Part shown: one piece after another, positions 2,566 to 64,000 of the stretch
Position numbering within the stretch: position 1 is the stretch's first letter
Layout of the letters: each line of letters opens with the position of its first letter
Program-made: the position numbers and the translations under genes
Assembly (NCBI GenBank): GCA_050084515.1
Contig: CM114271.1
Coordinates: 33,976,001 to 34,040,000, forward strand
Direction: 5' to 3'
DNA: 64,000 nt
Source of the DNA: Blasia pusilla
Taxonomy: Eukaryota
Notes under the pieces: generated by a model
What the model was told of the DNA's origin: nothing
The model's database searches: none
The model's input: only the letters and a program-made list of their open reading frames with translations

Positions 2566-2567
2566 AG

Positions 2568-29636: not shown

Positions 29637-31826
29637 CTAGTGAGAATGCCCGTGCGATGCACCGGCATCAAATTTTTCACTGAAATAAATCTTAACTTTA
29701 TTTTTAAGTAATAACATACATCCAATTTCACACCCAACCTACGTGCACTCGTATTCGAGCATGCAACTTCCCAATCCTCTAGCCTTCAACCCACGAACGT
29801 TCCACACTGTCCACCATGGCCGGTAGACGATATGGTCTCTACTTATAAGATACTATGTGATCCTCATAAGAAAGTTTGTAAATGAATGGCGTGTATGGGA
29901 CATTCTTGTGTTCAATCCAAAGGATTTCCATGAATACACTCTCCAACCAATGCAATGCCAAGTTCTCAAGAGCGATGGCGGCAGACTCCAGAATCATGCT
30001 CGCCATCGGATTACTAGCCCTGTTGTACTGCACCACCAAATCACCCAGATTTGCCACGCACTCTTTGGTGATCATATGAGTCTCCCGCACATATGTGACA
30101 GTGAGGTTAGCAAATGCTTTGATGGCCTCTTACGCAAGCTTGTGTGCTTGTGTTGTGACAACAATGTCACGAGAGACTGTCACCAAGCCCCAAAGATTGG
30201 GGAACTCGAGAACATCAATTCGTTCTCCGATAGGCATTTGAGATTAGCCAACGCTCTCGCCGCTGTTCTGCGTGTTGGGGCTTCGGTTTTGGACATCGAT
30301 GAATCAAACCCCGAAAGCAGCGGGGCATTTTGCAATTTTCTAATTGGCCTCGTGGGCGTGGGAAAGATTGGCCAACGCCCCATGCTGCTGCTGCTCGCCC
30401 ATCGGGGTTCGCATTTGGAACAGAAGGTCCATCAGAGCGGGTAGAGCTTTGTGGTAGTCCACGATCTTGAGGCCATTGTTTTGGGCCAGCGAGGTTCCCA
30501 GAGCCATGGCGGCATACTCCACCAGAAGAGGATCTTCATCGCGGTAAAGACACAGCGCTACCTCTTCCAGGATGCCCGGGTAGTCAGCGATTTTAATCTG
30601 AATCTCCTCGGTGGCGGAGAGATTGGACAAAGTGAGAACGGCCGATTTCTGCAGAGCATAGTTCTTGTGGCCCTTGCTTTTGATCAGCAATCCAAGAAGA
30701 CCACGCAGAGCGCTCGAATCCCCCGAGTGTGCAATCGTCGCATTCTGCGGCACTGTGAGAGGCGGGGGGCGAGTCTTGCCTGCATTGTCCAACAACATCC
30801 CCTCCGCCGGTCCGGCCAGTTGAAGGAGCTGGTCTCCGACCTTGAGGGAGATGCTAAACCGGAGAGGCAAGCGGTGGCGTGAAAGCCATCATGGGCCTGG
30901 CGTTGTCGGAGGAAAATCGAGTAAATATTTGTGAGAACCCTCAAGCACTCGCTGCTCGTGGCGCTTCTTTGTTCAAGGATGACAATCGGTCTTGCGAGAA
31001 TCATGGAACGCTCACATTGGGCGTTCTCGCCGGGGTGCACCAAAATGCTTTGAAGATGGCACAGTAGCCTTTCGCGCTGGAAGGTTTGATCAGATTGCAC
31101 CATTCTTGCGACTTGTCCGTCAAAATCCAGGATATGAGACACCGGCATGAAACAAAAGATTCGGCTGCTTCTGGATCCCATAGGAGTGCGAGAGCAAGAG
31201 GAGTGCGATTGGGCTGAATCCTACACTCAAACTTTCCCTCCTCCTAAGCTCCAACGGATACACCTCCGACAACACGATTTCACCCACATCGATTCACCTC
31301 CATCGATTCATTTCACCTCCACCTCCATAGTTCCACCCACAGTGATTCACCTCCACGATTCCACCCACGTCGATTCACCTCCACCTCTACCCACACCTCC
31401 ACCTCTACACGCAGATGAAAGTTCCTCGACACCAACTCTAGCTATGAGGCTCTGAGTCTCTAACTATGGCAGTGCAGGCTCAACTTATACTTGAGTAACG
31501 ATCATAACTATCACACACTATTGTGTGGATACAATAGCCCCTGCCTCCTCACAATGACACATGTAACTAAAAGGAGCAGAAACTGAAACGACTCCACTTT
31601 TAGGTAGCAGATTTGATTGGGAGGGGAAAATTAGCGTTGGGTCCCTTATAACAATACTCCATGGCTTCACTTCTTCTAGAAAGACTCTTTCAGGTTTTTC
31701 TTCTCCCTTCCTCCATTTAGTAACCCCCCATGTTAAGAGTATAGATTATTTATGGAGGGCTTCACTTCTTTGGGAAAATTTTTTTCCAAAAGAGGTAACC
31801 CCCCCTTCCTCGCATTATAGTATAGA
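29637..31826 (-). mobile_element. Non-autonomous Helitron carrying a gene fragment
   Basis: Minus strand 5' end A|TCTATACTATAA at 31826, with a second 5'-like end TCTATACTCT at 31745. 3' hairpin CCGGTGC-ATC-GCACGGG, 8 nt, then CTAG|T at 29637. Confidence 0.75.
29850..31150 (-). pseudogene. Armadillo (ARM)-repeat protein fragment with stops and frameshifts
   Basis: Recurring ARM-like units: AVLTLSNLS...IKIADYPGIL; AAMALG...KIVDYHKALPALMDLL; GALANLS; AIKAFANLT; AAIALENLA. Confidence 0.7.
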
Positions 31827-33015: not shown

Positions 33016-36000
33016 TCAAGGAGTGTTATCGTAATAAAACACCTCCAAATTTTCTTCATCGCATGGCATGGAGAATTTGGTGGCTAGGGGATGCGAAGGA
33101 TGTTCTAAATCCCACGAAGCGGAAACCATACTCTCCTGGTCGACAGTCAGTTCACACAGCTCAGGCAGCGACAAGCTTGGTTGAAAGCGGTTGTGGTCTT
33201 CTTGACCTGCTGGAAGAACCACTGGAGATACCATGTAGGTCAATCTGCAATCTGTTGTACTTTGGTCCAAACTTTCCAAGTCTTGAAAAATATGGTAAAT
33301 GCTCAAGCCCTGGTCATTGTTCTGTTTGTAGACATTTGATTGTTCGTCCTGATCTGTGCATGCTATGTCGAGTGCAACATCGTCGGAATCGCCGTCAGGA
33401 TATGCCGGTTGTAAATGCTCGTGAAACCAGCCAGAGTCGCCCGCTCCAGATATTAGAAGCGACTCGTCCTTGCATGATCTGAGATGCTTTTGCTCCTCCC
33501 AGATCTGTGATATGAGGTGTCGACTTTCTGAATGATCCACGCTCGCACTCCGATTTGAATGTGTGTCCTCATGCCATGAAATTAAACCCGATAGCGCAGT
33601 AGTGGACCACTCAGTGACAAGGAGATCCGAATTAGGACTTTGATTGTCTAGTGTATCAGACTCTCTACATTGGTTACAGTCCACGAAGTTCCGGCGATCA
33701 CCAGGAATGAGCTGTGTATCGGTGCTGGAAGGATAGATCTCCGATGTATCATCGGGTCTCGAGTAGCATATTTCGACATTCATATGATGTCTTCTCATAA
33801 GCTTCGACGCGGAAGGTAACTCATGAGACTCGTGAATCTCTGGTTCCAACGCCCACGAAGTAGATTGACGAGTCTCTAGATCTTGAAGATAAGCATAATT
33901 CCAGTGCTCATGCCAATTGGTTAAGGCGTGGTGACTACCCATCAGATCATCAGGAATAGTCTCTCGCAGACTACCGTTTATCTCCCGTATGCAGTGAGCA
34001 GGTAATTCCAACAACTCGTCCAGTTCCTTATTCCTGCCATTTGTATCAAGATCGCGTTGCAAAACTATCGATGTTTCCAGGGAGCATTTGGTTGAGTGAA
34101 GGCACTTAGTCTGCATCAGTAAATGACAGATTAGCTTCTGTAACGATTGTAATTACACTTTTCGATGAAAGTAACCGGAAACATACAACGCTGATCCGTT
34201 GCAATCAAGCTGATCGTGAGTGATAGACTACTTGTAAAGTCCTGATTTTATTCAGATTTTAATGTGAGCAAAGATAAGATCCTTGGGACCGGCGACCCAA
34301 AAGTATTCTGACATATACATCCTGGTGTCTAATATCATGCATCTGCAACCAATGATCTGCCTTGAATCATCTCGAATACTTAACGTGGAGAGAAACACGT
34401 TGATTCATTTTAGAAGATCGAATCATATTTTAGGTCTAATTTCTACAAATCTCTTTTCTTCTCTGGAGTCCTGGAAAACCTATATCCGAGTGGCATCTAA
34501 ATTTTGCTCCATCTTAAACCACCAGCGTGGCTAACGCGAGTCATGTGTGCGTCAATATTCCTTTCGTGACATAGTCTTTTACGATGTTGTCAACTTATCA
34601 ATCATGTCGGTCTCTCTAGTAATGCGCGAACCAGGCTGACATCGACGTAGACTTCAAAGTGCAATGTATCTAGATAGCATTACGTGATATTTCCTCTGTA
34701 AGAAATCGTTCTTTCAAATCTGGAATTTGCAATCTTCTTGGTCTTGCCCATCGCGTGGACGTACCACGCTACGTTGATGATAGCTCGGCATTCTGTATGT
34801 TGAGTTGGAAAAAGTGTAAGGAATGGAGGCGAGAGAATAATGAGTAATTGGGAGTTCTGAACATGACCTTCGAGTGCCTTAACCAAAAGGCATTATGGCT
34901 CTCCTTAAAAAAATGTATAGTCGTGTACTACCCCCCATCAGACACTCACCTTGGCATCAGATGACAGATCCACGGAACTTCGGACAGATAAGATGGTGAG
35001 CCTTCTCAGAAGTTCATCTACAGCTTGTGTCCTGAAAGAGAGTTGAAAGTGTCGGTCAAACTAGAACAAGGATGCTTTCTCTAATGATTCTGATCAAACT
35101 TCAACTTCTTCTGTAACATGTAGACGACTGACATAGAAAAGCTTACCCAGAAAATGTTCGAAAACCACGCTCCGGCTTTGGCAACCGAAGAGCAGTGTGT
35201 ACAAGATGCTGCAACCCGTTTCTCAATTGATTCATAAGGTCTTCGTGTGGTATGAGTCGTGATACTGTAAAGAAATAATAGACAAAAGTTGGGACGGAAA
35301 GTGATCACATAGAATAGAAAAATAAAAACGAAAACAAAAAACAAACATTTTAGATGCCAGTCATAAAAACTCCTACCATTATGAATGCCCTCCAGAACTT
35401 CGTCGTCTGAACCCGCGTTCACAGTTTCTTGGTTCAACTTCTTATTATTTTCATCCTCTTTTTCAACGAGGTTCCTAAACCTGGTGGGACAGAACAAGCC
35501 GCATCGCTCTCCAAACTCGCATATACGTAACTGGGGTTGAAAGATAGACTGGGACGCTGCTCGATAATACTTGGAGCGCGATGTGTAATTGCTGTACTCG
35601 GATCCAGCGAAGCGTCTAAGATCTTTCTGAGTTTCGTCACTACTGCAGATAAAAGCTATGATTCAGTAACTTCCAACAAACTAAGAGATGATATACTTGA
35701 AAGAACCAATCAGAATAGAAACTGCCGAAATGACGTTCCAAATCATCCGTGAAATAGGGATCTATATTTGGTTCTCATAAAGCCGACGAAGTCTATCAGC
35801 CTGTCATTGAGAATGAGGTAATTATGAAGTAGTTGTCCTTTCAGAGTTTGATCTGGATTGAACGGTTGATTCCATTGAGATTGCACAACCAAGATATCGA
35901 TGTTAATCTTTTGGCCAGAAACTCCAACCAATTACACCGTGCCTTGAATTACAACATGTAACACTGTGACACTTCTGGGAAGTTGTAATAGATAAGTCCC

Positions 36001-41317: not shown

Positions 41318-43623
<2,306 letters not shown>

Positions 43624-45755: not shown

Positions 45756-48221
45756 ACCCATAGAGTGCAAATTTTAACTTCTCCTGTACATGTGACAGTG
45801 AATGTAGAGGAGTTGGACTACATTCCTAAAATTACTTTCCCTTGCAGGTTGTGACTGGACTAGCATATATGGGCCGGAAGTGGTATCGTGGGCTTTTGTT
45901 GTATGACACTACATTGCTGTACGGTTAAGTCCTTGCATTCCTATTAGCATTATCTTTCAGGCTCAAGACTATCAATGGTAGTTTTTTTGTCGTTGATAGT
46001 CTTTATAGTTGAACTCATGTCGTTGATAGTCGATGATAGTCTTGATATAAAGTCGATGATTAAAAGTATGCAGAGTCAAAACAAAAGCATAATTATAGAG
46101 AACTCATTTTTGGATTGTTATCCTCATGAAAAAACTTCACTTGCTATAGTGCACAAGTGAAATGTCTCCCCTCAAAAAGACACGGAGCTAGAATGGCCTC
46201 CTACTCAGTGTAGACACCGTATACCGCACCACCAGAAGGTTCCTCTCTGGAATGGGTAAAAAAAAATCATCCTTAAGGTCTCTAATTTTGAACTCTCAAA
46301 ACCGGGTTCCGCTTGAACTAGGTAAAGACTTCACTCTCCACCAACTTGTGTCTTTCTCCAACATACATCTACAATGTCGATGGTGAAAAGGTTTCTCTGG
46401 CTCTCCTTAGTGGCCGTGTTTATTTTCTCAAGCATTGGTGGTGGTTGGAATGTTGCAAACTTACAACAGCGAGTCGACCAAGTCATAGGTAAGCATTGGG
46501 GGAATCAGGCCTAGGGTCCCTTGTTTTTAAATTGGTGTCACACACCGTAGAGTTAATAGGCTATCAACCTTCAGATAGAGCAACAATGATAGAAAAAACT
46601 TTTAGAACAAAATTTCTACGTCTTAATGTATACAAGCCCTATGTTTGGCATATTCATGTGGGAATCAAAGAAATTTTGGCAGATTATGTTCACCATGTGC
46701 GTGGATATGAATGAATGGTTAAAGGCAATAGTTGAAGACGGAGGATATTTCTATAGAAACAATCGAACTCATCCTGACATATGTGAATACGTGGTTCAGG
46801 GATTTGTAAAATTGAATATTTAAATGAAAGGAAGTTGGTATGAGGATTGTTGTCTTCCATCTCTAATATCTTATCAGTGGCAAAAAGTCCAAACACTCTT
46901 TAAGAACCATAATGGAGCCACTGAAGGATATAGTAATGATTAGGGACTAGCACGGTGATACATAGCTTGGAGGATTGACACGCATAAAGATCAAGTAGGG
47001 TGGAAAAAGCTTCACGATTGAGAAGTCATTAGTCTAAAAGAAAAAAATTTAGTCTCGGTCAACCAACAACCATTCGCAGTTTCTATCGCAAGGTTCCGCA
47101 CTACAGTGTTTATATGCAATACGAAACATGGAGAGCTGAATTTGCATAAAAATGCACTGCTACAATGAGAGAGAAAAACGCACCGCTACAAGAAGGTAAA
47201 AATCTGAAGAGAAAATAATGAAGTGCAAATCTGAAAGGTTTTATAACATTATATCACATTGATAGAAGGAGAAGAGTTTTCTTACAGTGAATTTAAGAGA
47301 AAGCAATTCACAAGAATATTGATTCTCTTACTACATTATCTATCTACATTTTTTTTGAAATAAAGTGTCTATGTTTCTGCAATTCTCTATCTACATATTA
47401 TTGTCTGAAACGAAATGTCTATGTTTCTTTATATCTATCTACATGTCACCGAATCAAGTTTGAGACATTATGGAGATCTAATTTCGTATTCTAGTCTCCA
47501 TTATGGTTAGCTCGTTTTGGATAGTAGCTTTGCAACCTTGGAAGTTATTATCAAGCATGGCTTTCTCGAGCTGCAAAGGTTCAACAGTTTGTTAAATTTG
47601 TAAATTATAATCATTATAAATGTATTGGAATCGAACTATCCTGGAGTTAAGGAACTGATCCGAACAGAGTTAAGGAAATGGTCCGGAGTATTGGAACAAA
47701 CTTAGTAAAAGGAAATACTCACAATGTAGAAGGAGAAAGCCGCCTGCTCAAGAGATCTCACCAAGGGCATTCTCGTATCAAATCTGGCCCCCTACATAAC
47801 ACGAGAATTTAGTGACACTATAGCATGCAACCCGCAAGGATCCAGAGTATCCTCTTGAGTGCGCCATGAATTTCTTTCTCGCAAGGAAGCAAGTTGTGTA
47901 TGAAATTTTTCTTTGTTTTGGAAATCATGTTTATATTTACTCAAGTCCAGTTGATGATATAATTTTGTCCGTAAAGTTTGTATTGATTTCTATGAAATGT
48001 GAGATCTAGTGTCTTATTTGTAAAATAAATGTTGAGATATGATCATAATACAGAAAGGAAGAAAGTACCATTGTAATTTGTCCCTTCCTCTACCTCATAA
48101 ATTTGTTCAAGATAGATCGCGGATTTGTGCCTTGAGGACCCCATGCAACATAAAAATCCTTATGAGCCTTTCGTCATTCAGGGAAATCTTGAATTCTTCC
48201 TATATAGACTCATGTTGGAGT

Positions 48222-48798
48222 TGTCGCGTCTTTTAGGATAGATCGGTGGGATCTAATAGAGCGCCTTCATGAGTAGAGGAGGACACGCCCAGTAGGTCGA
48301 GGGTGACCTGTTGAGGCCCTTGGAAACCTGAGATAGCAGGTTTCCCCTTCGTTTCGGCTCATTTGGAGCCATATTGAGGAACTTACTATTTTAGGTAAGT
48401 ACCATTTTGAGTATATGATCGACTTACTATTTTTGGTAAGTGGCCCTTGACCTCCTACATAGATCAAGAGCCAAGGAGGTGACTTGGGAGAATAGGTTAC
48501 CATGGAGAGAGCTTGGGAGAGGGGAGGGGTATACCTCAATGAGAGAGAGCTTGAGAGCTCATTCTCTCTTTGTTGAACCTCTTGGCATGAGGCGGCGGAA
48601 CTATGGTACCTTGCTTTGTGAGTGTAACCCAAACCTCTCATTAGGAGAGTGGGTTTGGTTTGACATGAGAGAGAGTGCACACCTTTGAGAGCTATGGTGT
48701 GAGATGGTGGAGAGAGAGATTGGAGCTTACTTTACAAAGAGAGAATGAGAGAATGAGAGAGCTTCATGGGGGAGCTCGGTGGTCACTCGCTGTTTTTG
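48222..48798 (+). repeat. 5' terminal repeat, block A plus short M segment; lacks block B
   Basis: Matches 57866-58376 and the reverse complement of ~22883-23462. Confidence 0.88.
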
Positions 48799-51700
48799 CA
48801 GGTTGGGGACCGTGTTCCCCGTTCAGCGGCTCATGGGAGTGCTCACCGGAGCAAGGGCTGCTTTCATTATTCTTTGCATTTGCCGATTTTTGTGTGGAAG
48901 AGTGGCGCGCGGAAGCGCTGCCCAATTTCTGATAGGGATTGAGTATGGGGGCGGGTTGCCCCATGCTGGTGCTCTCGGGAGCACCATGTAGCTTATTGAT
49001 TTGTATTTTTACAGATGTTACATTTTCGTTGAGAGAAATCATCGCGGGAGCGCTGCCAAATTTTGTGTAGGAGAAAGAGACATTGGGCTTTACGACAATC
49101 CCCGTCAGTTTTTACTGAAATGTTCGATTCTAAATATTTTTTGATACTAGCGTAGATCTTGAAGATGTGCACTTTATGCAACAAACAATGCACAATTTGG
49201 AGTTGCGAGAAAAAAGTTATGGTCAATCTTGTAAAGATGCCATTGCTAGGCGATTTTTAGGGTTAAATTGTGCAAACCCTAAATCAGCCGCCACACCAGC
49301 GGCGGCCATCGCCATCATAGTCACCGTCAATGGTCGACGGTCAACTGTCACCGTCAACCGTCACCATCATCGGTCGGCCGTCACCATTAGCGGTCAACCG
49401 TCACTGTCAACGGTCCACCGTCCATTGTCCACCCTTTGGGTGCCATTGCCGCCATTACGGAGTGGAGGGTCTTCCACGACGTTCGTTGATTCCTTGACTT
49501 GCGTCGCCACCACGTACTTTGTTTTGGCCACCACCGTCATCGCAGTTTCTTCATCAACTAGTGATGCAAGATGACCTCCAATTATGGTGTTTGAGTTTTG
49601 ATTTCATGCTGCTAAGTTGTGATTGGTAGCCGCTCGACGACGATCGAGTATCGTGGTCGCGTGCCCGTAAGCGCAACGCGCGCCGCCGCGCCGTGCCGCT
49701 CGTGGCCGCACCGCACCATCTCAATCGCGGAGCCGCATGGTCATTGTGGAGCAGAGTGTGGGATTATTATTGATTGAGGATGGTATGCCGCCGAGTGCCG
49801 CATCCCACCATCGAGGGCCGTGCCGTCAGAGCCGTTCGCCGCCGCCGCAACGCCGCACCGTTCGTTCGGGGACCGCATTGTCTATCGAGGAGTTTTGAGT
49901 AGCATCGAGACGGGAGGAGTATGACTTGCTGATTGGAGGAGTTGTCTCCACGATCGAGTTGGGGTCGAGATTTGCGATTCTTTGAGGAGCGACATCGACA
50001 TGTGTTCGGGTTACCCATTACGGTCCTTTACCCCGCACGTGTGAGGTGAGGATTTATTTGGGGATATTGGGTGTGTGGATCTTTGAGAGCATCATTTATG
50101 TATGTGGTCTAGGGACATAGACCTGTGTGGGATGTCCGGAGTTGAGGGTAGGTTGTCGATGAGATGATAGCTGGTCGATTTGCGGCACCACGCCGCGTGT
50201 TGCCGCACGTTACACGTCTCGGGGAGAGAGAGTGTAGATCGAGTGCCGCATGTTTGGGATGAGTGATTGAGGGATTCCTCACGAGGTTCAGAGTGATCAG
50301 GTGAGAGGGGCACAAGGGTCATCAAGGAGTCCGTTCGGGACTTTGAGAGGCGAGGTGGTGAATCCGAGAGTAGCTCTAGAGGTTTTACGCGGAGTGGCGT
50401 GAGGTTCCGAGGGTCTCCACGTGAGGGACCACCTCGACCTCCTTCTGTGTCATCTTCAGACAAGGGGGAGGGTATAGAGGAGTTTGTGAGCACATCGCCA
50501 CACATTGTGAGTGGTCCTACCAGTTGGGCGTACGAGATGGACGACCGGGGTAGAGGACCGCGTAGGTTTTCAGTGCGATGAGGCACGATTGAGTTTACGA
50601 TTTTATAGCAGAGTTTAGGAGTTGGTGCGACTCCCAGCGGGCCAGGAACTCTAGAGACTTTAACCCGTTTACAGCATGGAACGGTATGTTCCAACATTTA
50701 GAGGAGGCACCCATGGACGATTACCATGAGTTCTCTCAGAGATATGCACGTGAGATCGAGGCGTGGAGGCTCTACTATGACCCACATTATGTGTCATGGA
50801 CGGAGCCGTTCCCAGACAAGGAGGAGGAGTCAGGAGAGGCTACTGCCTCTTCCACTAGTGACGTTTTAGGAGGGGTCACTCGCACAGGAGCAGTTGCACC
50901 GTCTAGTCGGGTTCGTCCCAGGTTCAACCCTGTGGTTGAGTTCTTTGCTGAGTTGAGGGCGAGCTACCAGGGGGTACGGACGGAGAAGTTGCGGAGCATC
51001 CACGACTTCCAGAGGCGCCCAGGTGAAAGTTTGCGTGAGGCTTACACTCGCTTGCGCCGGTTGATCAACGTCACTCAGGGGGTGACAGAGGCTCAGGCTA
51101 TCCTGTCATGGTACGCGATACTGGACCGGACCCTACGGACACGGGTGCGGGAGGGGGTGCTTCTTATGAACACCTCCCCTACGTTGAGAGATGTTTTTTG
51201 GAGCGCCGAGAACATTGAGCGCAACATGGCGGAGGCGAGCGTAGCTCCCATGGGTTCTGGGCGAGAGCAGTCATGATTGTCTACACCACCTGTGCAACAA
51301 CATGGACTCCAAGATAGGTCGACTGTGGCACCACAAGCTTAGGGAGGATACCAAGAGGCCGTGCCACAGAGACCTGTGCCTTCATATGCAGCTCAGCAAC
51401 TACCGCCTACTATTACTTGTTGGTCATGTGGTGGAGCCCATCATCAACGCGATTGCACTCGTCAGGGTCATGGACGTGTGCCTCAGCATGGAGGAGGAGA
51501 TGGTGCTGCACCATGAGGTTATCATTGTGACTATTGTCAGAGGTATGGTCATACACACGCCAGGTGTTTCAGTTGACATCCTGAGTTACGTCCGGACCGA
51601 GGGCCAGAGAGGGCACTAGAGCGAGTAGCCGGTCCGGTTGGGCCTAGAGATCGTGCACCAGGTGGTCCCATTTGGGGACGAGGAGCTGGAGTTGCCCGAC

Positions 51701-53258
51701 AGGGTGGTGGAGCTACCCGTGGAGGAGATAGAGTACCACCACCTAGACGCGCCGAGGGAGACGCCGGACGTGAGGTTGGGATGGCTGCTCAGATACAGCA
51801 CCTACAAGAGCATATTGCCGCTATGGCATTGAGGTTACCCGATGCCGGATCCGTGGCATCGACATCATATGGAGCAGCTAGAGATCTGTAGGATGCTGGA
51901 TGGATGTGCGGGGTTGCCCAGATGGAGGCCGCTGCAGTGGTGACGTGTGGAGCAGCCGCAGAGTTGGATCCACAGCGAGGGGAAGCCAGAAGACAGACTA
52001 GACTTCCTCAGTCTTTCACATTGTCCGAAGCGATGAAGACCCCATCGATGGGTCCTCATCAAAGTTCCTAGAGAGTTGGTAATGTTGTTGGTGTGCAGGC
52101 ACGGAGGGCGATGGGAGAAGCGAGTGCGACGACTCCTATTGATGATGCTCAGGAGGGGCATGTGTCGAGCACGTTGTTGGGGGCGGCCACCGTTGTGTAC
52201 CGCACTCCTTTATTTTCTGCTTCCGATGTTGTGACGTTGGGGGGTATGCCCGCCGAGGCTTTTTGGTTGGCCGCTTCACTATGTGAGCGCGGAGTTGGAG
52301 TTCTTGCATCACGTTCAGAGGTGATTGCAGAGGAGGTGATGGACCTGCCCTTGGAGCAGATGCTCGGGCCGTCCACGTCAGATTCATGGCAGGCTGCAAC
52401 TGCTAGGATGGCGGAGATGCCCGCTAGAGCCGCGATAGAGCGTGCCATGGCTTTTCCTAGTGTTGTGTTGCTGGATAACCGAGGAGAGGTCTTCCAGTTG
52501 GTGAGTTCTGGAGGTAGAGCTTTTTAGTCATGGCAGCAGCGTCTTGTTGATTCAGAGCGCAACCCTTGATGTTGGGGAAAGCGTCATTCAGAGGATTGGG
52601 CTTGACGAGAGCTGATGTGGAGTGTTGTCCATTTCGGATACAGACATCCTTGGGTGGAGCGAGTACCACAAAGTATATCACTTGACAGGAGGTCGTGGTG
52701 AGGATTCGCTCGGGACATCCTACAAATATGTCTATGGTGCGCGCCAAGGCGATAGTGACTGATGCTGAGTCCTACGACATCTTGGTTGGTGGAGCAGTGT
52801 TATACCCAATGGGGTTTTCCCTGGATTACTGGGAGGAGTCAGCGTCCTACAGACCAGGATGGCAGTCAGGTGATGGGCGCCTTAGCTCATTACCCGTTCG
52901 ATTCACAAGTGCAGTGATCGAGCATTGGCCAGGAGAGATGGCGACCTTAACAGCATTTAGCAGTGCCATCACTTGGCCTAGTGATTTGATTGAAGGACAT
53001 GTCCATGCAGAGGATACTCCCGTTCCTGACATTTCTATGGAGAGGAGTGTTATGGTAGTTGCATCATTCCGTGGAGGAGAGGTGCCGCTGTGGGGCTCGA
53101 CTGAGGAGCTTCAACGATTGGCAGATGAGCACGTGCAGACCGCGTGGAGAGAGGCGTTTGCACCAGAGCGTGACGGGTCTGAGGAACCCGAGGTAGCAAG
53201 GAGTGCTACAATGACACCCTTGGATACCACACCCATTGTGTGGTGTACCCCGGAGGAG

Positions 53259-54174
53259 GGTATTCGAGTGTAAGATCTCTTTGGAGGGATTAGCACCGGG
53301 TTAGTTGTTGTTTTGCAGGTAGGAGTGCGAGTACAACAGTCTCTGTATGTGGAGAGTGATGATGTTACAAGGCGCGTCTCACTACGACATGTGGCGCAAT
53401 TACGCCTACGTTTTCCCGACTTATTGTCTGCGTCCGCAGTATAGGGGTACTAGAGTTCCCTACCGAGGGATATTTTGTTGTTGGGGGCGCAGGACTTAGA
53501 GCCGGTAGGAACCATTGATTTGGTCATTGCCGGTTGGCCATGTCAGGGCCAATCGAGTGCTGGACGAGCAGCGGGTTGGCTGACACTCGGTCTAGGTTGT
53601 TTTGGGAGATGTTGAGGGTCTTACGGCGATGTGGGACCACCCGTCTCGTTCTCCGGCCTACATTCTCGGAGAATGTGCCGATCTTAGAGACTCAGTCACG
53701 GGTCGTGACGAGTGCTCATCAGGTGCGTGCCTGGATCGGCCCAGCAGTGTTCTTGGATGCGGCGAGTGTAGGTTCTAGAGCCCATTGCCCGCGTCTATGG
53801 TGGACCAACTTGGTGCCCCATGCGGTGTTATGGAGGGCGTATGCGAGAGTGGAGCGCCCCTCCCCTTTGTTAGTGGATTCCATTCTAGATCCAGGTCGTC
53901 GATCACATGCAGTGAGGCACGATGATCGACCACCGCTGACTGTGGTCAACATGGTAGGCAGGCCGCAGGCAGCCTTGCCCATGTTTGTGAGTTTTCCCGC
54001 TTCCTATGCATACAAGGAGACCAATCCTGGCTTGGTTTGGGATGACCACGTTCAGCGGTTGGTGGAGCCCAATGCCGACGAGAGAGAGCGAGCGATGGGA
54101 TTTCCCACAGGAGTGACGGCAGTACCATCGTGTCGAGAGGCATCACGACGCCATGTCTTGGGTCAGTGATGGAC
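53259..54174 (+). pseudogene. DNMT3-like cytosine-5 DNA methyltransferase domain inside pol
   Basis: Motif I DLFGGISTG (53274), II YVE, IV IDLVIAGWPCQG (Cys codon 53541), GLADTRSRLFWE, VI ENV (53669), VIII LDAA...AHCPRLWWTNL, IX ERERAMGFPTG, X RRHVLGQ. Confidence 0.92.
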
Positions 54175-57100
54175 TGAATCGCTTGACATGGATCCTCGGC
54201 TTGGGAGAGGTGGCGGCGTCGTATGAGATCGCGACAGATCACAGCGGTTGCGTTGGTGAGCCCCATGCCTACCGAGACGGTGGAGGCAGTAGCTGGGGGC
54301 GAGACCCGAGGAGATCTACGCACCTGGGGAGATCGGGAGAGACACCCTTGGACTTCTTGGGATGTTTTGAAGGTACGCAAGGAGATGATAGCCACAAAGA
54401 TCGGCGTGGTTTCGGAACGCACGTGGAGGAGATCACGATTTGCGATTGGCAGGAGAGCGGCCGAGTGTTGTCGTTCGAGACGGGTTGCACCATAGCAACC
54501 ACCGATACCCGTGTCAGAGAGTCCTACCGTAGTCACGATGGAGACTTGGGAGCCAGATATGGGCCCTAAGTTGACAGGAGGAGAGCGGCGCCTAATACAT
54601 CATTTCCTCATGAGTTATAGGAGCTGCTTTGCGTTTAGTATGGAGGATTTGGGTACGCTAAAGGGACCGGGATCCGCATTGAGTTGTCGAGTGATATGCC
54701 GATCTTCCGCGACCCTCACAGTCTGATGATATGGAGAGGGCTCTAATTCAGAGTAGGAGCCAGGACTTGGTCGGAGCAGGACTAGTGGAGATGTCGCATG
54801 GGGAGTATGCATCTGCCACTGTCATGCCCGCCAATAAGGATGTGCATGGCAAGCCGGGCGAGATAGGCGGATGTGTGGGGATTACCGACCTATCAATCGG
54901 CGAGACAAAGTCCGATAGGTATGCCATGCCCACCCCGAGAGATCTTTGATGCGATTGGTCACGCAAAGCTCTTGATTCATTGATTTATGAGCCGGATACC
55001 GTACCCTATCGATTGGAGGATAGGCAGAAGACGGCATTTTGGGGCATCGATTCTCACGGAAAGGATTGTTTGTACCAGTGGCGGTTCTTACCATTTGGGT
55101 TAAAGAACGCCTCGGCTAAGTTTCAGAGGGTCATGGATAAGATCTTGGCTGGTATGGATTTTGCTAGGTGTTATATTGATGACATCGTAGTCTTTAGCGC
55201 CACGGTTGAGGAGCATGAGAAACATCTAGAGGAGGTGTTTCGACGATTGCAATTACATGGGCTGAAGCAACATCCAGGCAAGTGCAAGTTCTTCTACGAC
55301 CAGATTGAGTACTTGGGTCATATGATATACCCAAGGGGCCTTGGTGTTCAACAGACGAAGGTAGAGGCTATCTCACGCATTCCACGCCCTACAGATGTGA
55401 GCCATGTTCGCGCATTCATGGGATTGGCGAACTTCTATCGGCGATACGTCAAGGGATTCAGTTTGATTGCAAAGCCGTTGACCTTGCTGACCAAGGTGGA
55501 TCACGAGTGGCACTGGGGGGATGAGTAGGAGCGAGCATTTCAGTTGCGGTTGACGTCCGCACCCATCTTGAGGAGACCGATCAAGGGGCGTCCTTTCCAG
55601 TTGCACACAGATTGGAACATGTTGGGGCTTGGAGCGGTGCTCACCTAGCATGATGATGAGGGTAGAGAGTTCGTGGTGGCTTACGCTAGCCGCTCGAACA
55701 ACGCTGCAGAGGCGAAGTACAGCTCGTATGAGGGTGAGTGCTTGGCTACGGTGTGGGCTGTCGCGCATTTCAGGTATTACTTATTCGGCAACCCCTTTAC
55801 CATCATCACTGATCATCAACCACTGAAGTGGTTGATGGAGTCCGACAAGCTTACATGGAAGCTTACAAGATGGGCTCTGTTGTTGCAGGAGTATGATATT
55901 TAGGTGGTACATAGACCTAGGATGCTCAACCAGGATGCAGATGGGTTGAGTCGTAACCCATGCCCGAGTCAGCGAGATGCGACTGGAGCTCGATGGCATG
56001 AAGAGAGTGATGACGAGTCGGTGCCAGGATGGCACGTTGGCTATGGAGAGCCAGAGTGTGGAGACTTCGATGGCGAGGTCTAGTGGAGAGTCCTTGGATC
56101 CCGAGGCCAATTAGGACACGACAAGTGGCCGAGATATTCATGATGATGGAGTAGTCTTAGAGTACCTTCGTACTGGCAGCCTTGCGAGCACCATGGATGC
56201 TAGAGAGCGGGATCGGATCCTACAGCGGGCCAGACGGTTCTATTGGGAGGGGACACATATTTTGAGGGTTTGGGAGGATGGCAGAGTACGCGTAGTGCCG
56301 CATCCTTCGCAGAGAGCACGACTAGTACAGCATGCCCACGAGGAGTTGGGTCACCTTGGGGTGAAGCAGATGTATAGCTTGCTCCAGATTCAGTATTGGT
56401 GGCGAGGCATGCAGACTAACGTTCAGCAGTTTGTTGCCAGGTGCATGGTGTGTGATCGGGTCCGAGCATCGTTCAATGCTCCAACTCCACAGTTGCATCC
56501 ATTACCGATCATGGGCTGGGTATAGATGGAGTTTGGATTTTGCAGGACCTTTGCCCTTGACGGAGCGTCACAGTCGTTATGTGTTGGTGATGGTCGAGCA
56601 CTTCTTGAAGTGGATCGAGTTGGTTGCATTGCCTGACAAAGCGAGTGAGGGAGTAGCTTATGCCTTCCTTGACAGAGTGTTGAGTCATTATGGCGCATCG
56701 GCTTAGGTGTTGACAGACCAAGGTACCGAGTTTTGCGGTGAGCTCCAGGCCTTGTGTGATCAGGCGCTGATCGACCACCGCACGACTTCGCGAGATCATC
56801 CTGAGGCGGATGGATTAGCGGAGAGAGTTGTGCAGACGGTGAAGAGGGGTTTACGCAAGTATGGCTTGCAGAGAGGTCACCTAGGAGATTGGGACCTCCA
56901 ATTGCCATGGTTGGCGATGGGATACAGATTCAGCAGGCAGGCATCCTTAGCGTCTTTTTCACCGTACTTGCTACTTTATGGCCAAGAGCCAGATTTACCT
57001 GCGGCCATTCGTCGAGATGCTGGTGAGGTGCTGAACCTTGATGACCCAGATGTTTGGGTGCGAGCATGTTCTTAGAGGGCTGAGTTATTTCGGAGAGTGA

Positions 57101-57432
57101 TGCCCATGGCGTTCGAGAACTTGACGATTGCACAGCATCGGGATATGTTGAGGTATGCGACTATTCGAGGTGGTGGTTATCGACCAACTATCCAGAGGTT
57201 TTATCAAGGAGATTATGTCTACTTGCAGCAGATGGCACCGACGACGTTGGATGTGACTGCAAGGCGCACTATCCTGAGAGTGCGTGACATTTTGCCATCG
57301 GGTGTTCTCTTGCTGGAGGGACGCGATGGTATGGTATGGAAGGACCATGTGCGTAATTGTGCGCCATATCACCTTCCTAACATTGATGGTACAGTAGATC
57401 CGAGCTTAGCAGTAGTTCCTGCAGGCTTGCGT

Positions 57433-57570
57433 TGTATGTTGTGTGGTTCTACCCGTGGTGCGGCCACGATGCTAGTATGTGATGGGTGTTCGAGAGGATG
57501 GCATATGGCATGTTTGACGCCACCTCTCACTAGGGTTCCTCAGGGACGATGGATGTGTCCCAGATGTACA
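57433..57570 (+). other. PHD finger at the integrase C-terminus
   Basis: CMLC...MLVCDGCSRGWHMACLTPPLTRVPQGRWMCPRC is a complete C4HC3 pattern. Confidence 0.95.
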
Positions 57571-57750
57571 TAGAGAAGGTAGTTCTACATTCCGACTTGT
57601 GTCTGTGACATGGATGACAAGGAGGCGGCTAACGATGGGGCCACATGAGCACCCGGCCTTCTTGCTCTTAGCGTCAGAGAGATGTATGTCATGGTAGGTA
57701 GGGATAGATGGCTATCGGAGTTAGAGGACCTAACCACCAGCTAGGGGGCG

Positions 57751-57863
57751 ATTGGAGATATTTTGGTACTTCTTGTCTCGTTGTTTGGATGCCATGAGTT
57801 AGCATGGGATCATGCGTGTTTGTGTGTGTGATGTATGTTGTGTAGCGATGTGTATGCGCACGA
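57751..57863 (+). repeat. Internal copy of terminal block B (B1)
   Basis: ATTGGAGATATTTTGG...TGTATGCGCACGA, repeated at 58378-58503. Preceded by AGGGGGCG. Confidence 0.88.
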
Positions 57864-57865
57864 GT

Positions 57866-58505
57866 TGTCACGTCTTTTATCATAGATTGGTGGGATCTAA
57901 TAGAGCGCCTTCATGAGTAGAGGAGGACACGCCCAGTAGGTCGAGGGTGACTTGTTGAGGCCCTTGGAAACTTGAGATAGCAGGTTTCCCCTTCGTTTCG
58001 ACTCATTTGGAGCCATATTGAGGAACTTACTATTTTAGGTATACCATTTGAGTATATGATCGACTTACTATTTTTTGGTAAATGGCCCTTGACCTCCTAC
58101 ATCAGGTCAAGAGCCAAGGAGGTGACTTGGGAGAATAGGTTACCATGGAGAGAGCTTCGGAGAGGGGAGGGGTATACCTCAAGGAGAGAGAGCTTGAGAG
58201 CTCATTCTCTCTTTGTTGAACCTCTTGGCATGAGGCGGCGGAGCTATGGTACCTTGCCTTGTGAGTCTAACCCAAGCCTCTCATTAGGAGAGTGGGTTTG
58301 GTTTTACATGAGAGAGAGTGCACACCTTTGAGAGTTATGGTGTGAGATGGTGGAGAGAGAGATTGGATCTTACTTTAATTGGAGATATTTTGGTACTTCT
58401 TGTCTCGTTGTTTGGATGCCATGAGTTAGCATGGGATCATGCGTGTTTGTGTGTGTGTTCGGTGACAGCGATGTATGTTGTGTAGCGATGTGTATGCGCA
58501 CGACA
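57866..58505 (+). repeat. 3' terminal repeat, blocks A2 + B2 (M segment absent)
   Basis: TGTCACG...CACGACA. A2 is 57866-58376 and B2 is 58378-58505. Confidence 0.9.
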
Positions 58506-60799
58506 GAGTCTTTCCCAAGGTCTCAAAGTACACTTGAGAGAATCTGCCAACAACATGGACAAAATTACATAATTTAGTGTCTTTGCGACTATCTTGGGAT
58601 CACAATGCGGCGAAGGTCTAATTTCTCTTTTCAGTGCTTGTTGTGTAGTATGCTTGAGTAAATCTACAATGTCTTGTTGCCGTTTGCATTGTGCTTTCAA
58701 TGCAATTAGTTAATGCCTTTTGGTTGAAGATATTGTTTGTCCCTCCTGATTGTGATGCTTATCATATTGTTGCTCGGGAAGCAAGTGAGAGCCTTGATTT
58801 TCACCATCTATTCTCGATCTCTTACATCATGGACCATCTAAATTTGGCTAAAGGTCTTACTCCCTAGAATGTATGGGTAGTTTGCACGACGACTCCACAT
58901 CATTTTTTATCGAGAGAGATTTGAATCTAGGAAGAACTCTTAATCGATTGTAAGTAAACTTATCAAGGGAATTCGGATCTCCCTCCATTATCCCTAGAAC
59001 TTGTAAAATACTGAACACACTCTGTGATTTACATGTTTCTCTTTTCTATGAGGGAAGGAGTGGATGGAGTTGGAGGTGGAGATGTACGAGGGGTGACAAG
59101 AGCACAAATCTACGGAGCAAGAGAAGGATATCGTGCCAAATCGATAATTTCAATAACTTTGCATTCTACTATATCAAGGATTATCCAAGGTTCCATTCTA
59201 GAAGAGGAAAGGTGCTATAGACCTCGAGCCAAATCCCAAAGTAGGTGATAAAATGAGGTTTTGATTTTAGACTTATTAATAAAATATGAAAGGGACATGC
59301 ATGAGGGGTTCTTGTGCAAATATCCCACTCTCCCGCCCTCCCAAAATTCTCACTTGTGTAATATCCCGCTCTCAAGATGAATCAAATCCAATAATCTTGA
59401 TGGGATTCAAATCACGACGCTAACAAATGGTAGCTTCTCTAACTATTGGGATTGCACTACAATGTGTGCTTGATGCAATACGTAGACCACCCTCAATTTG
59501 AAGGTAAGCAGGAACACCTCATCTCATTCTTTTTTTTAATTTAGATAAAATTGAAGCGCACAATTACTACGGGCAGATTAGATTTATCGTTGGTTCGGAA
59601 ATCAAAGAGATAGCTCCCAACACAAGGATCTACAAAGCTGCGTGGAGGCTTCGTGGGAGAAGGAGCATGAATTCAGAAGATTATTTCAGAATATTGACCA
59701 TTTAGAGGAAATTATTATAGGAAGATCGGATCGATGAAAGAAGGAGATTGAAGCGAGTATAATTGTTACATGCTTTGAATGCAACTTGGGGGGATGGATA
59801 TAGATAGGACAACACCTCATCATAATATAAAAAATGTGGAGAATTGAGATCATAATGGTGGAACTCGTGAGGGTCGTAATTGATGGATTCCTTCGACACC
59901 ATGGATTACACTCGGGTATCAATCACCTTCCTCAAGTTTGGAGACTACTAGTTGAAAACCATCTTTCATGTTTGGTTCATACGCTGAAGGAGGTTTCAGC
60001 TTGAGATGGCATTCTATATATTATGTCATCTCTTGACCTCTTACTAATTATTAACTGAGTTAGATGGATTGCATGTCTATTTTTTATAAGCTTGTTGTGC
60101 CTTCCCTCACTTTTTAATTATCAAACATCTGTTGATCAGGTAGGATGCTTTAGCAAGAAATTGCTTGTTTTAAAAACTTTCTTCAAGGATTGATGAAGAA
60201 ACTATATCATGTTACCTTTACTCTCATGTTGGTAGATGAAGGTGTCATAGTGTTGAGTATTTTACCTAGAACAAGATTACAAGAAGCGCGCAAGATGCTC
60301 CCTATTTATCAAGAGACCATCAACCTTCCGAAGAGATCTCTGCCAGTCTTGAGTGTTGTGATTCAAACTAAGCCAAGTGAGATTGTCACAAGAAAAGTGG
60401 AAGCTTTGGTTGAAGATTGGAAAGTCCCTTTAGTGTTGCTTTGTGGAAATTATTTTTAGGGAGTTCGGATCGATGAAAGAAGGAAATTTAAGTGAGTACA
60501 ACATACTTTGAGTGAACCTGACAAACCATGAAACAAAATTGTTATGCTGCATGGTTATCCGCGACCAAGGGTGATGGGAGAGAGTAAGAATTCACAGGTA
60601 TGTTGAGGCGCTGCCAAACATTGAGGAATAAAATGAATCACTTTGATGAGTTTTTTGGAAAAGATGTAATGAGCATGATCAATGTATCGTTGGGTAATCC
60701 TGAAAATTCATCAACGTTGATTCCATTCATCATTTTTCCTTAACTGATATTCCTCATCTGCTGTAATAGCATCAATGCGCTATTTTGGAATCTTGAAAG

Positions 60800-61560
60800 T
60801 CATAGAGGCGATTAGGATTGTCCGTTCTAATAGCCTCAATGTGCACAAGGACCGTGATCAGGATTTTGATTGCATAAATCTCCAACTAGACTTCTCCAAT
60901 CTTAGCGAGCCACAAATTATGGAAGGTTGACATCCTAACACCAAGGCATCTATACATTAATAGTTTTTATAGGATGTCTAGTCCCTTGGGCCATTCTTGG
61001 GTACTTGGGCCCCAAACTTCCGAAGCATTTGAAGTGGCTCAAATGACTATCCACTTGAAGAGGTGGAGTTTTTGTTGTGTGTACCACATGTCTTCTCTTG
61101 CAGTTGGATTTCAGTAGGTGAAAAAGTTTCATCTCCACGTTAGCCAATTTTTATTTGCTTTGAGCTTAACCACGAAGTATATTTACTTGTCAACAATCTC
61201 AATACCTTCTTTGTTCTCACCTTGTCTATAAGTTAATGTGTGCAAATGTTGTGTTGTTGGTAGTATAGATCTAAAGATAACTACTTTGGTCTTTTGTAAA
61301 TTGACCTCTACCCCTAATCTACTGCATAATCCCCAAAGTGCATTCAGATATGGTTATAGACTGATTTTTGGGACATCAAAATGATGTCCGCAATTTTTTT
61401 GGGGAATATTCTGAAATTGGTCGATTCAAGCAGGTCTCTATTTACCTCCTCAAGTTCATTTATGTAAACTCCTAATATTGTAGGAGGCAATAGGCGGCCT
61501 TGTTTGACTCCAATGTTAGACAACAATGTCTTTGATTGTGGTACTGAATCAACCAATTTT
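60800..61560 (-). mobile_element. Decayed non-LTR (LINE) reverse transcriptase fragment
   Basis: NIGVKQGRLLPPTILGVYINEL...IADII resembles the GVKQGxPLSP...YADD motifs. Heavily disrupted. Confidence 0.7.
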
Positions 61561-61683
61561 TGCTAAAGGGAAGGTTCTTGATCAATACGAAGGGTTGGGT
61601 ATTGATTGAAGTATCAAGAAAGACGATCAAAGTGATTTAGAGCTCATTTTCATGCCTTTGTATTTCCGCCATCAAATCCTATA

Positions 61684-62553
61684 TTGGTGGAAGGGGATGA
61701 GATATTATGTGATATTTCCTCACAGTATTATTGTCAACAGTATGAGGTGGTATCTGTAGATGGAGTGTTGGTGCCCCTAATTGTAGTACATTCAACTAAA
61801 GTGCAATTGGATGGAGAGAACCCTGCCATATGCATGCTAATAGGCTATGGTGCCTACGGCAAGCCAATGGAACTAGAGTGGTGTAGTGAATATCTTAGTC
61901 TGTTGGACCGGCAGTGGGTCGCAGCATTTGCATATGTAAGGTACTCTTTTTCTTGCCCTACCTTCTTCACTGGGGTTGTTTTTGTTAAGTTGCAAGAGGC
62001 ACTACGCAAACAAAATTCTCTGACTTCATTCACGTTTCAATTTGCCTTATAGAAATATGTAGGAGAAATAGCCGTGGGACCCCGACATTGTGGCATCGGA
62101 AGACTAATATGAAATTTTTTTCTCCATGTAGGGGAAGTGGAGAATTGGGGAGATTATGGCATCAAGCAAGGAAACTTTTGCAAAGAAGAACTCTCGTAGT
62201 GATTTTATTGCATCTGCCAACTTTCTCGTTGAGAAGAACTATGCTCATCGGAGAAAACTTTGTGCTATGGGTATAAGTGTTGGCGGTCTACTAGTAGCCA
62301 ATCCCATGAATCAACACCCGGATCTATCCCAGGCAATTATTCTTTAGGTTTGCATGAATGTTGGAGTGGCGGGACTAACCACACTACTACATCTAATTGA
62401 TGAAGGATGATGTTGTGGTAGTGAATGACCCAATTGTCGCTATACAAGTGTAGAATGAATAATGATTTCTTATGCCCAGATAAGTTATTGAATTTCCTAT
62501 GGGTTATGTTACAGGTTCCCTTCTTGGACATCAACAACACTCTCTCAATTTAA
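61684..62553 (+). pseudogene. Prolyl oligopeptidase family S9A (protease II-like) C-terminal fragment
   Basis: SVDGVLVPL...GYGAYG...SLLDR...AYVRGSGELGRLWH...KKNSRSDF...GISVGGLL...VPFLDI. Two GT-AG introns, a frameshift near 62175 and premature stops. Confidence 0.85.
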
Positions 62554-64000
62554 GTGGTCTTTTCAACCTGCTTACAATCATTACTTCATAGTTGGATACA
62601 TTCTATAATAAATACAATTTTCTTTGGGATAACTATTTACAAAAATGGAGTGGGTGGTCTTCTATCAACACGGCCCCCCAATGAAGAACGTGATTTTTTT
62701 AGTAATTTTTGTACACCGTTCCCAGCTACACAAGTGGACATGCTCTGCAATTATAAAATTGCACTCAAGTTAAGGGCAGAAAAGTGTGTCTCCGTCCAAA
62801 CTATAAACTACCAACATTTTCACCGAAGTTTTTTTATATCACTTAATCTTGGCCTCATACAAATTTAACTTTTGTAAAGTTTCTACTTATATCATATTCC
62901 AGGCTTAAAAAGAGGATAGAACCTATGAAGGAAAGGTCAAGCCTTGTCCCTTGTCACATCTTAAGTTCTAAGCAAGTTGTAAGTTGTGGTGTTCGTGGTT
63001 TCTAAACAAGACTTCTATGTGTGATATTGTCATCCACTTTTGGTCATAATGTAAATTAATGGCACTCGAGGTAATCGCCAACAAAAAATAGTTGCTTTGG
63101 TGTGGTGTGGCTCATAGTGTTGAAAAGGTTATACTATTTGAAGATGGCGGAGTATGAGCACGAGTTACAAGCAGAAGTTGTGCAAGATGCTAAAAGCCTC
63201 GTGAATTCGTCTAAGAACATGCAATGCCCAACTTTTAAAACTGCACAAATTTTGCAACCTTGAAACTCATATTGGTGATCATATGAAAGCATGGCAATGA
63301 GAGGGAGAAACTCTGATAACGTGAAAACTAATGCCAGTATGAACTTACATAGGTATTTATAGTCTTATCCCTGGTTGCACTCTTACGTGCAGTGTTCGAA
63401 TGAATTGTTGTCCAAATGAGTGATTTTTTTAAACAAATTTTGTATTTTTAAAATAAATAATTTTGGTGGATTAGTGATTTTTTTCACTCCAATAAGCTCT
63501 TGATCATCATCGACATCTAAGTTTATCATTCTTATGTCTTGTACTTCAAGATTTTTCTATTCAATTGTTACAAACTAACATAAAAAAGAGCATTGCCCAA
63601 CTCGATGTGGTTGTAGTGCTCGGAGATATCTTAAGTGAGGAGGCAAGTAAGTACGGTGATTTCCAAAAATCAGCTCTCGTGCAAGGCATGCAAGATTTTC
63701 TCAACAAGTCAAGGATAGGAAAAGATATTTTTTATCGAGATTCCAGTGTACATGACATGTAATTAGCAAACTTGTTTTTTGTCATATTGTGCCCTTCAGA
63801 TGTACCCCCTACAGATTTCTCTAAAGTCAACAAAGGCTCAAGAATTCTCTAGACCAATCGTGTATTACAATGGAGATAAGTTGTTAAATCCTCAGTCATG
63901 TATCAAAAGCTTAGTAAGCATGTGGGCACTATTGAAGACTGAGTTGCAGTCAAGCTCATCAGACATCCAAAAAACTACATTCGGTACTCACACGAAGTAG

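Follow-up and report, generated by a model that had tools for sequence, protein, structure and literature searches.

Gypsy-type retrotransposons that carry their own DNA cytosine methyltransferase (DNMT) of the DNMT3 kind were published in 2018, when de Mendoza et al. described KnitGypsy-Dnmt3 from Klebsormidium nitens (PMC5890265); DNMT3 Gypsy elements are also mentioned "in streptophytes" (PMC12344493; bioRxiv 10.64898/2026.05.21.726589). Here we report the analysis of 64,000 nucleotides of Blasia pusilla DNA (GCA_050084515.1, contig CM114271.1, positions 33,976,001 to 34,040,000, forward strand; hereafter the window, to which all coordinates refer). By BLAST, repeat finding, Pfam and tblastn, a 10.3-kb copy of a Ty3/Gypsy-type long terminal repeat (LTR) retrotransposon was located at 48222-58505 on the plus strand, with a DNMT3-like domain at 53274-54174. 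This domain very probably belongs to an element that was inactivated long ago, a member of a bryophyte-type Ty3/Gypsy family with a built-in DNMT, and the comparisons below suggest a leaky stop codon behind the enzyme; self-methylation is a possible role. The initial annotation of this stretch, made from its sequence without database searches, had noted that DNMT-carrying retrotransposons are known, as the 2018 work confirms (PMC5890265).

According to the accessible text of PMC5890265, KnitGypsy-Dnmt3 has an LTR Gypsy pol, an unpermuted DNMT3-like domain within its polyprotein and conserved key catalytic residues, all of which it shares with the family in the window. Its Ka/Ks is below 0.2, and the best pair of the window's family has a value of 0.12. 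Both combine Gypsy domains with DIRS-like repeats in the order A-coding-B-A-B, an arrangement that the figure legends of PMC5890265 give for SymbioDIRS-Dnmt3 and, by reference, for KnitGypsy-Dnmt3. The KnitGypsy-Dnmt3 host is a charophyte alga, whereas the family described here is of a bryophyte-type land plant and has a high copy number. A stop codon after the DNMT, a PHD finger and 4-bp duplications go unmentioned for KnitGypsy-Dnmt3 in the accessible parts of that paper, and the two are likened by description; no K. nitens protein was seen among the named matches of our homology searches. SymbioDIRS-Dnmt3 of Symbiodinium shares a DNMT3-like domain in pol, the A-coding-B-A-B repeats and the occurrence of two domain orders in one group, but it uses a tyrosine recombinase and belongs to a different retrotransposon class, whereas the family in the window has a DDE integrase (PMC5890265, accessible text). 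The family thus matches the kind described as KnitGypsy-Dnmt3, and what is new are its land-plant members, the stop codon that sets the DNMT on the Gag-protease side, the PHD finger and the A-coding-B-A-B layout with 4-bp duplications. In the openly accessible literature we found no account of Gypsy-DNMT3 elements from bryophytes or chlorophytes, and none that describes the two domain orders, the stop or the PHD finger (subscription papers and supplements were outside this search), and the Marchantia gene-model names of family copies were likewise not found in the literature search.

In the window, C5-methyltransferase motifs I, IV, VI, VIII, IX and X lie in canonical, unpermuted order on the plus (pol) strand, distributed over three frames. 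Motif I (DLFGG) begins at 53274 and motif IV (GWPCQG) is intact near 53535. An open reading frame (ORF) at 53519-54169 holds motifs VI (ENV), VIII (DAA..GS.AH.PRLWWTNL) and IX (ERERAMGFP), and motif X (LG..MD) is at 54157-54174. The motif order, the pol strand and the intact PCQ reported in the initial annotation are therefore present as it described them. The Pfam comparison that it had proposed gave a divided result. The window fragments reached only 15.5 bits (E 0.012) against PF00145, below the 22-bit cut-off, with the domain split by frameshifts, whereas the relatives of the domain did match, 14 of 16 at E<=0.001 (13 of them over the cut-off) and 16 of 19 in a second scan.

These relatives were obtained by an exhaustive HMMER search in which the 216-residue ORF at 53519-54166 matched 673 proteins at E<=1e-3 (best 6e-61), of which 340 also passed E<=1e-10. 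The N-terminal piece of the domain, with X at its two stops, matched these proteins as well, in the stretch that directly precedes the match of the C-terminal ORF, so that the two pieces are collinear (for example, residues 199-295 and then 299-495 of protein P0011, and residues 1293-1389 and then 1392-1590 of P0006). A single-sequence search of the PDB with the C-terminal ORF returned only noise. When a family profile built from 21 relatives and the two window pieces was searched against the PDB at E<=0.01, it gave 53 matches, of which the top 29 are all DNMT3A, DNMT3B or DNMT3C (1e-22 to 8e-18, 83.7-67.5 bits). These were followed by two DRM-type entries (4e-13), M.HhaI (9e-10) and DRM2 (3e-9), with 52 and 39 bits for DRM and 41 bits for M.HhaI; no entry named DNMT1, DNMT2, CMT or DNMT5 was among the matches at this threshold. 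In the DRM matches, the N-terminal half of the profile aligns to the C-terminal part of the chain, and the motif order in the window is unpermuted, unlike that of DRM. Homology of the domain is thus established by the relatives and the family profile, not by the window fragments alone. The profile scores support the label DNMT3-like, and the DNMT3 resemblance noted earlier holds, since DNMT3A is the first match of the profile (E 1e-22). The host DNMT3A, DNMT3B and DNMT3C catalytic domains (PDB 2qrv, 6u8p, 8tci and others), as the best profile matches, share the motif order and the wording of motifs VIII and IX, but the domain of the element is without PWWP or ADD companions and is embedded in a retrotransposon polyprotein.

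To place the domain within its polyprotein, 299 of the matched proteins were sorted by domain order. The order of the window, protease-DNMT-reverse transcriptase (class B), was found in 36, the order reverse transcriptase-RNase H-DNMT-integrase-PHD finger (class A) in 165, and the DNMT only in 98. Two class B relatives carry the domain at the same place in single ORFs, P0280 (2358 residues, protease-DNMT-reverse transcriptase-RNase H-integrase-PHD finger) and P0152 (2327 residues), both of which run from protease to integrase. A search with the family alignment also yielded 80 metagenome loci, of which 71 are of the class B order and 7 of the class A order, while 2 show the DNMT only. In an unrooted FastTree phylogeny of 210 DNMT domains, the smallest clade that encloses the 25 class B tips also takes in 18 DNMT-only fragments, for a total of 43 tips, but no class A tip (support 0.993), and in a corresponding tree of 119 reverse transcriptase-RNase H sequences, the 4 class B tips, including the reverse transcriptase of the window, form a clan (support 0.999); both trees contain transposon sequences only. 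Class A elements share the backbone (reverse transcriptase, RNase H, H2C2-rve integrase, C-terminal PHD finger) and a related DNMT (35-45% identity), which in class A lies between RNase H and integrase but in class B between protease and reverse transcriptase. By these trees and domain orders, class A and class B are sister lineages of one backbone. The domain may have moved within pol or been captured twice, two routes that trees without an outgroup do not tell apart.

These comparisons bear on two readings in which the element would have no enzyme of its own. One holds that the motif matches arose by chance in GC-rich, degraded sequence, as might be thought from window fragments that stay under the Pfam cut-off and a single-sequence PDB search that yields noise. 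With a best E-value of 6e-61, 340 matches at E<=1e-10 and a profile that finds DNMT3A at 1e-22, this reading is refuted, and we regard it as hardly credible. The other holds that the stretch is a fragment of a host DNMT3 gene, or a separate insertion nested in the Gypsy copy, and frame changes and a stop at 53271 do indeed bound the domain. It is refuted by relatives that show the same domain order in uninterrupted single ORFs and by the 71 metagenome loci (of 80) that share this order; moreover, the DNMT tree and the reverse transcriptase tree split the two architectures alike, and a repeat search found no flanking repeats or duplications around 53259-54174. We consider this second reading most improbable, and the domain is, as the initial annotation had proposed, an integral part of the Gypsy polyprotein between protease and reverse transcriptase. 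The counter-evidence that this annotation had itself named, sister copies lacking the domain or a nested insertion, did not turn up.

The named class B relatives are bryophytes: Calypogeia fissa (64% identity to the window ORF), Marchantia polymorpha (about 16 gene models at 55-56% identity, including Mp_4g09160, Mp_6g11220, Mp_8g17980 and Mp_2g26090) and Sphagnum fallax, S. jensenii and S. troendelagicum. The land-plant setting assumed earlier is thus plausible, as the nearest named relatives are liverworts and Sphagnum. The Marchantia models (about 16, P0161, P0163 and others, 950-1330 residues) are in fact gag-protease-DNMT ORFs belonging to the transposon family. With 82-95% identity among their DNMT domains, the Marchantia copies seem to have been active recently. 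Class A includes chlorophytes, and its named members are Scenedesmus sp. PABB004, Monoraphidium neglectum, Haematococcus lacustris and Chromochloris zofingiensis. Two class A loci have very long open frames: L071 (1865-11851, 3329 residues) and L073, which also has a 3.5-kb direct repeat (1-3474 and 6557-10030, 99.97% identity) that could reflect a tandem or circular assembly.

At the level of the family, the catalytic residues of the enzyme are retained. Of 210 aligned rows, 207 have the motif IV Cys; all 210 have the Glu of ENV and 208 its Asn, and the two Arg residues of motif VIII are present in 206 and 208, respectively. For the ratio of nonsynonymous to synonymous substitution rates (dN/dS), a check that had also been proposed in advance, 13 loci whose DNMT match ran for 300 codons or more without a stop were used, among which three same-class pairs had a usable dS. 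The best pair, L004-L005, has a dN/dS of 0.12 at a dS of 0.26, and the proportion of nonsynonymous differences (pN) is below that of synonymous differences (pS) in 36 of 36 same-class pairs. These comparisons indicate that the family-level enzyme keeps its catalytic residues and is under purifying selection. In three RNA-seq runs of one study, 445, 452 and 506 reads fall on 48800-57750, the DNMT bins are covered and coverage climbs toward the 3' end. Nearly all of these reads are 95-99% identical to the window, and the majority of their first mates map to the minus strand, the orientation that sense RNA gives in most stranded libraries. From one DNA run, 104,725 contig pieces match the element. 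The family is therefore high copy and its sister copies are transcribed; the copy in the window is probably not the source of the RNA reads.

The copy in the window is itself dead and cannot make the enzyme. Compared with intact relatives, its whole gag-pol is interrupted by 18 in-frame stops and changes frame at least 7 times, and the share of the DNMT in this damage is two frameshifts (near 53573 and at ~54150, directly ahead of motif X) and four stops (53442 and 53451 inside the domain, 54175 and 54184 after motif X). Another stop, at 53271, stands in frame between the protease frame and motif I. The initial annotation was right that the frame of the protease runs on into the domain, and it missed both the stop that interrupts this frame and the broken state of the domain. 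The first Arg of motif VIII is changed to Cys, the sole such row among the 210 aligned, and reads and contigs from sister copies differ from the window at this codon. Because the two copies of its A repeat (A1 and A2) have diverged by 4.4%, the copy is not young.

The remainder of the coding region, all of it on the plus strand, was assigned by Pfam on ten window ORFs and, for the gag-like and protease-like regions, by tblastn with relatives. The Pfam domains RVT_1, RT_RNaseH, Integrase_H2C2 and rve, followed by a PHD finger, identify a Ty3/Gypsy pol with a DDE integrase. The gag-like region (50599-52581) is decayed, with 8 in-frame stops, and corresponds to residues 25-648 of Marchantia Mp_4g09160 (P0163; 41% identity); in tblastn, residues 25-1258 of P0163 align to 50599-54411. 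Next are a protease-like region and linker (52557-53270), whose frame leads into the DNMT and holds stops at 52683 and 53271; the protease active-site motif D[ST]G[AS] was absent from 52300-52900 in a scan of three frames. Downstream of the DNMT are reverse transcriptase and RNase H (54544-55984; RVT_1 E 4e-22, RT_RNaseH E 2e-28; 4 stops and frame changes), the DDE integrase (56133-57075; Integrase_H2C2 at 56304-56468, rve core at 56518-56802) and, at the integrase C-terminus, the PHD finger (57433-57567; PF00628, E 2e-11). The leader between the first A repeat and gag contains five overlapping copies of a GTCACC/GTCAAC-rich unit of ~40 nt (49320-49439, plus strand).

Between the DNMT and the reverse transcriptase, the window has an in-frame TAG at 54493-54495, which is followed by CAA CCA and by a frame that continues into the N-terminus of the reverse transcriptase. 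When loci were compared by anchoring on the peptide downstream of this stop, 46 could be anchored. In the nearest subgroup, the homologous codon is TAG in 13 and TAA in 5 of 19 loci, with CAACC[CT] directly after it in these 18, and the 19th has TAC. Two loci of a distant subgroup (L004 and L005, pN 0.36) have TAG CAG TTA, with the reverse transcriptase ORF in frame behind it. One of them, L005, holds a near-intact class B element (976-8226) with ORFs of 1369 residues (gag-protease-DNMT) and 1047 residues (reverse transcriptase-RNase H-integrase-PHD finger) separated by a single TAG. Among the database ORFs, six terminate at the column of this stop and five Marchantia models end ~30 columns later. 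Because the stop was inherited by most copies of two proliferating subgroups, it must have been present in their active masters. We infer programmed readthrough, in which the major product would be Gag-protease-DNMT and the minor product its extension by reverse transcriptase, RNase H, integrase and PHD finger, an arrangement similar to the gag-pol readthrough of retroviruses. The earlier proposal that the enzyme is packaged with Pol does not fit this gene order, as the conserved stop sets the DNMT on the Gag-protease side in the lineage of the window. The type I readthrough signal of plant viruses is UAG followed by CARYYA, and in tobamoviruses a leaky UAG of this type likewise parts an abundant upstream product from the polymerase, as UAG CAA CCA would in the window (PMC5382211, accessible text). 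In contrast to the viral case, the upstream product of the element ends in protease and DNMT.

In the gene order of the family (Gag, protease, DNMT, stop, reverse transcriptase, RNase H, DDE integrase, PHD finger), a leaky UAG behind the DNMT would cause the enzyme to be made with Gag and protease, in excess over reverse transcriptase and integrase, and thus to be present in the particles where complementary DNA (cDNA) forms. The likeliest job of such an enzyme, possible rather than probable, would be de novo methylation of the new DNA of the element itself or of the DNA at the insertion site, both of which the initial annotation had raised. A new copy methylated in this way would look like host-methylated chromatin.

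A related prediction concerns the PHD finger. The solved PHD fingers nearest to that of the element are those of CHD4, PHF12, KAT6A, KDM5B (PHD1), DPF3, PHF21A, ATXR5, AIRE and UHRF1, most of which we take to be readers of the unmodified histone H3 tail. The PHD finger may therefore steer integration to nucleosomes with unmodified H3 tails. As accessory domains, PHD fingers are common in transposons of Chlamydomonas (PMC8557442, accessible text). The integrase C-terminus of the element carries the PHD finger and no chromodomain, which sets it apart from chromoviruses; these likewise have a chromatin reader at the integrase C-terminus, but it is a chromodomain. The window also contains a chromovirus, of another Ty3/Gypsy family, at 3792-7187 (plus strand; Pfam protease, reverse transcriptase, RNase H, integrase, SH3-like domain and chromodomain). 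It has no DNMT and retains long open frames, which makes it a handy internal control for methylation comparisons.

The ends of the element pair split repeats with a target-site duplication. Its termini, 5'-TGTC...GACA-3', lie within a 4-bp target-site duplication, GAGT (48218-48221, with its twin at 58506-58509), and it has the order A1-coding-B1-A2-B2. The A repeat, of 516-580 bp, is present at both ends, as A1 (48222-48801, which begins TGTC and whose end was set from a solo copy) and A2 (57866-58377, ~60 nt shorter than A1 and the solo copy); the two are 95.6% identical over 519 aligned bases (48218-48734). The B repeat, of 113-126 bp, lies on either side of A2, as B1 (57751-57863, separated from A2 by the 2 nt GT) and B2 (58378-58505, which abuts A2 and ends GACA). 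A purine/G run resembling a polypurine tract (57740-57750) abuts B1. The solo copy, an A-B unit of the same family at 22758-23462 on the minus strand (87-97% identical), also has TGTC..GACA ends and lies within its own 4-bp duplication, ACTA. Either recombination between A1 and A2 or independent insertion of an A-B fragment could account for it. Among 20 full class B loci scanned, the A1-coding-B1-A2-B2 order was found in five (L007, L015, L021, L053 and L056), of which L053 and L056 have identical coordinates and may be one sequence. L007, L015 and L021 have the ends TGTCA...CGACA, 2 nt between B1 and A2, contiguous A2-B2 and a G-run that abuts B1 as in the window; 4-bp duplications flank L007 (GGTC) and L021 (CCAA). 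No primer-binding site could be recognized, as the sequence after A1 is unconserved between the window and L007, L015 and L021 and has no obvious tRNA match; Rfam and tRNA scans of the window also gave no match.

DIRS elements have a tyrosine recombinase and no target duplications (PMC8969392, accessible text). Membership of the element in DIRS was therefore rejected, in view of its DDE integrase and of the 4-bp duplications seen on either side of the element, of the solo copy and of L007 and L021. A literature search for Gypsy elements with split direct repeats returned only descriptions of DIRS. With a polypurine-like run ahead of B1, reverse transcription would yield LTRs of the form B-NN-A, and the integrated form would then resemble a two-LTR circle that was opened at the near-palindromic B|A site. 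Such a circle-opening step would explain the A-coding-B-NN-A-B layout, the TG..CA ends and the 4-bp duplications. A joint reading, in which the DNMT at the C-terminus of the abundant Gag-protease product ahead of a leaky UAG is packed and methylates the cDNA, and the DDE integrase inserts a circular two-LTR form opened at the internal palindromic site, is doubtful as a whole. A replication cycle of this type is not known to have been described for any integrase-bearing retrotransposon.

Several observations weigh against parts of the picture drawn above. The DNMT3-like label comes from profile scores, and the trees hold transposon-borne domains and no host DNMT3 or DRM. A third subgroup, which accounts for 25 of the 46 anchored loci, lacks a stop at the codon in question, and L007, L021, P0280 and P0152 are continuous across it; in addition, the stop context of the relatives, CAA CCC, is an imperfect CARYYA. 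Only three dN/dS pairs are informative; of these, L007-L022 gives 0.35 at a dS of 0.05 with few changes, and L002-L009 gives a near-neutral 0.89 at a dS of 0.06, as expected for recent dead copies. The RNA reads, all from one study at low depth, stem from sister copies, as just 1, 4 and 6 of them per run reach >=99% identity to the window. The CpG observed/expected ratio, taken as a possible footprint of methylation, gave no signal, since it does not differ between the element (0.81) and the window average (0.78). Finally, the KnitGypsy-Dnmt3 domain gave no detectable methylation in yeast, a result that its authors call inconclusive (PMC5890265, accessible text).

The yeast result would also fit a domain that serves without catalysis or on a substrate other than DNA, for instance in nucleic-acid binding, RNA methylation or particle structure, as has been proposed for other transposon-borne methyltransferase folds. 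The catalytic Cys, ENV and RxR, retained in 206-210 of the 210 relatives although a purely structural role would not require it, and a profile that matches DNMT3, with no DNMT2 entry at E<=0.01, make such a role improbable. A different possibility is that the enzyme acts in trans on the host, either by methylating the chromatin around insertions or by titrating or mimicking the host de novo pathway to blunt silencing. Gag-like levels of the enzyme, if the stop is leaky, and the high copy number of the family would suit action in trans, and effects on the host epigenome are discussed in PMC5890265. However, K. nitens carries such elements and yet has an ordinary plant-like methylome (PMC5890265, accessible text), and the present data do not separate action in cis from action in trans. 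We consider action in trans somewhat unlikely, and methylation by the element of its own new DNA or of the insertion site is the function we would place ahead of it.

Elsewhere in the window, 42624-43121 (minus strand) encodes an exon of a chloroplast-type porphobilinogen deaminase (PDB 4htg, "chloroplastic," E 2e-70; next entries 2e-39), which points to a green-plant host, most likely a bryophyte. Four long frames of 275-378 residues, at 12851-13981 and 33019-34152 on the minus strand and at 28788-29708 and 21034-21858 on the plus strand, have no Pfam match at E<=0.001 and could represent further repeats or uncharacterized genes. Downstream of the element, the flank (58510-64000) has a low GC content of 0.38 and a CpG observed/expected ratio of 0.49, compared with 0.77-0.87 in the rest of the window.

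Cytosine methylation is the main weapon of the host against transposons, and a transposon with its own de novo methyltransferase is thus a paradox, whose purpose has been open since 2018 with a single, inconclusive test of a Gypsy-borne enzyme. For annotation, the present results mean that Marchantia models such as Mp_8g17980, to which UniRef gives the name "DNA (cytosine-5-)-methyltransferase," are transposon ORFs and not host genes. Marchantia polymorpha is a transformable model liverwort with published methylomes, and a land-plant lineage with many annotated Marchantia copies, together with those of Calypogeia and Sphagnum, moves the question to organisms in which it can be answered. The features of the family, namely an enzyme on the Gag side, a PHD finger, split repeats with target duplications and a sister lineage that carries the domain at another position in pol, supply hypotheses on the dose, timing and targeting of a methyltransferase that a transposon may use on its own behalf.

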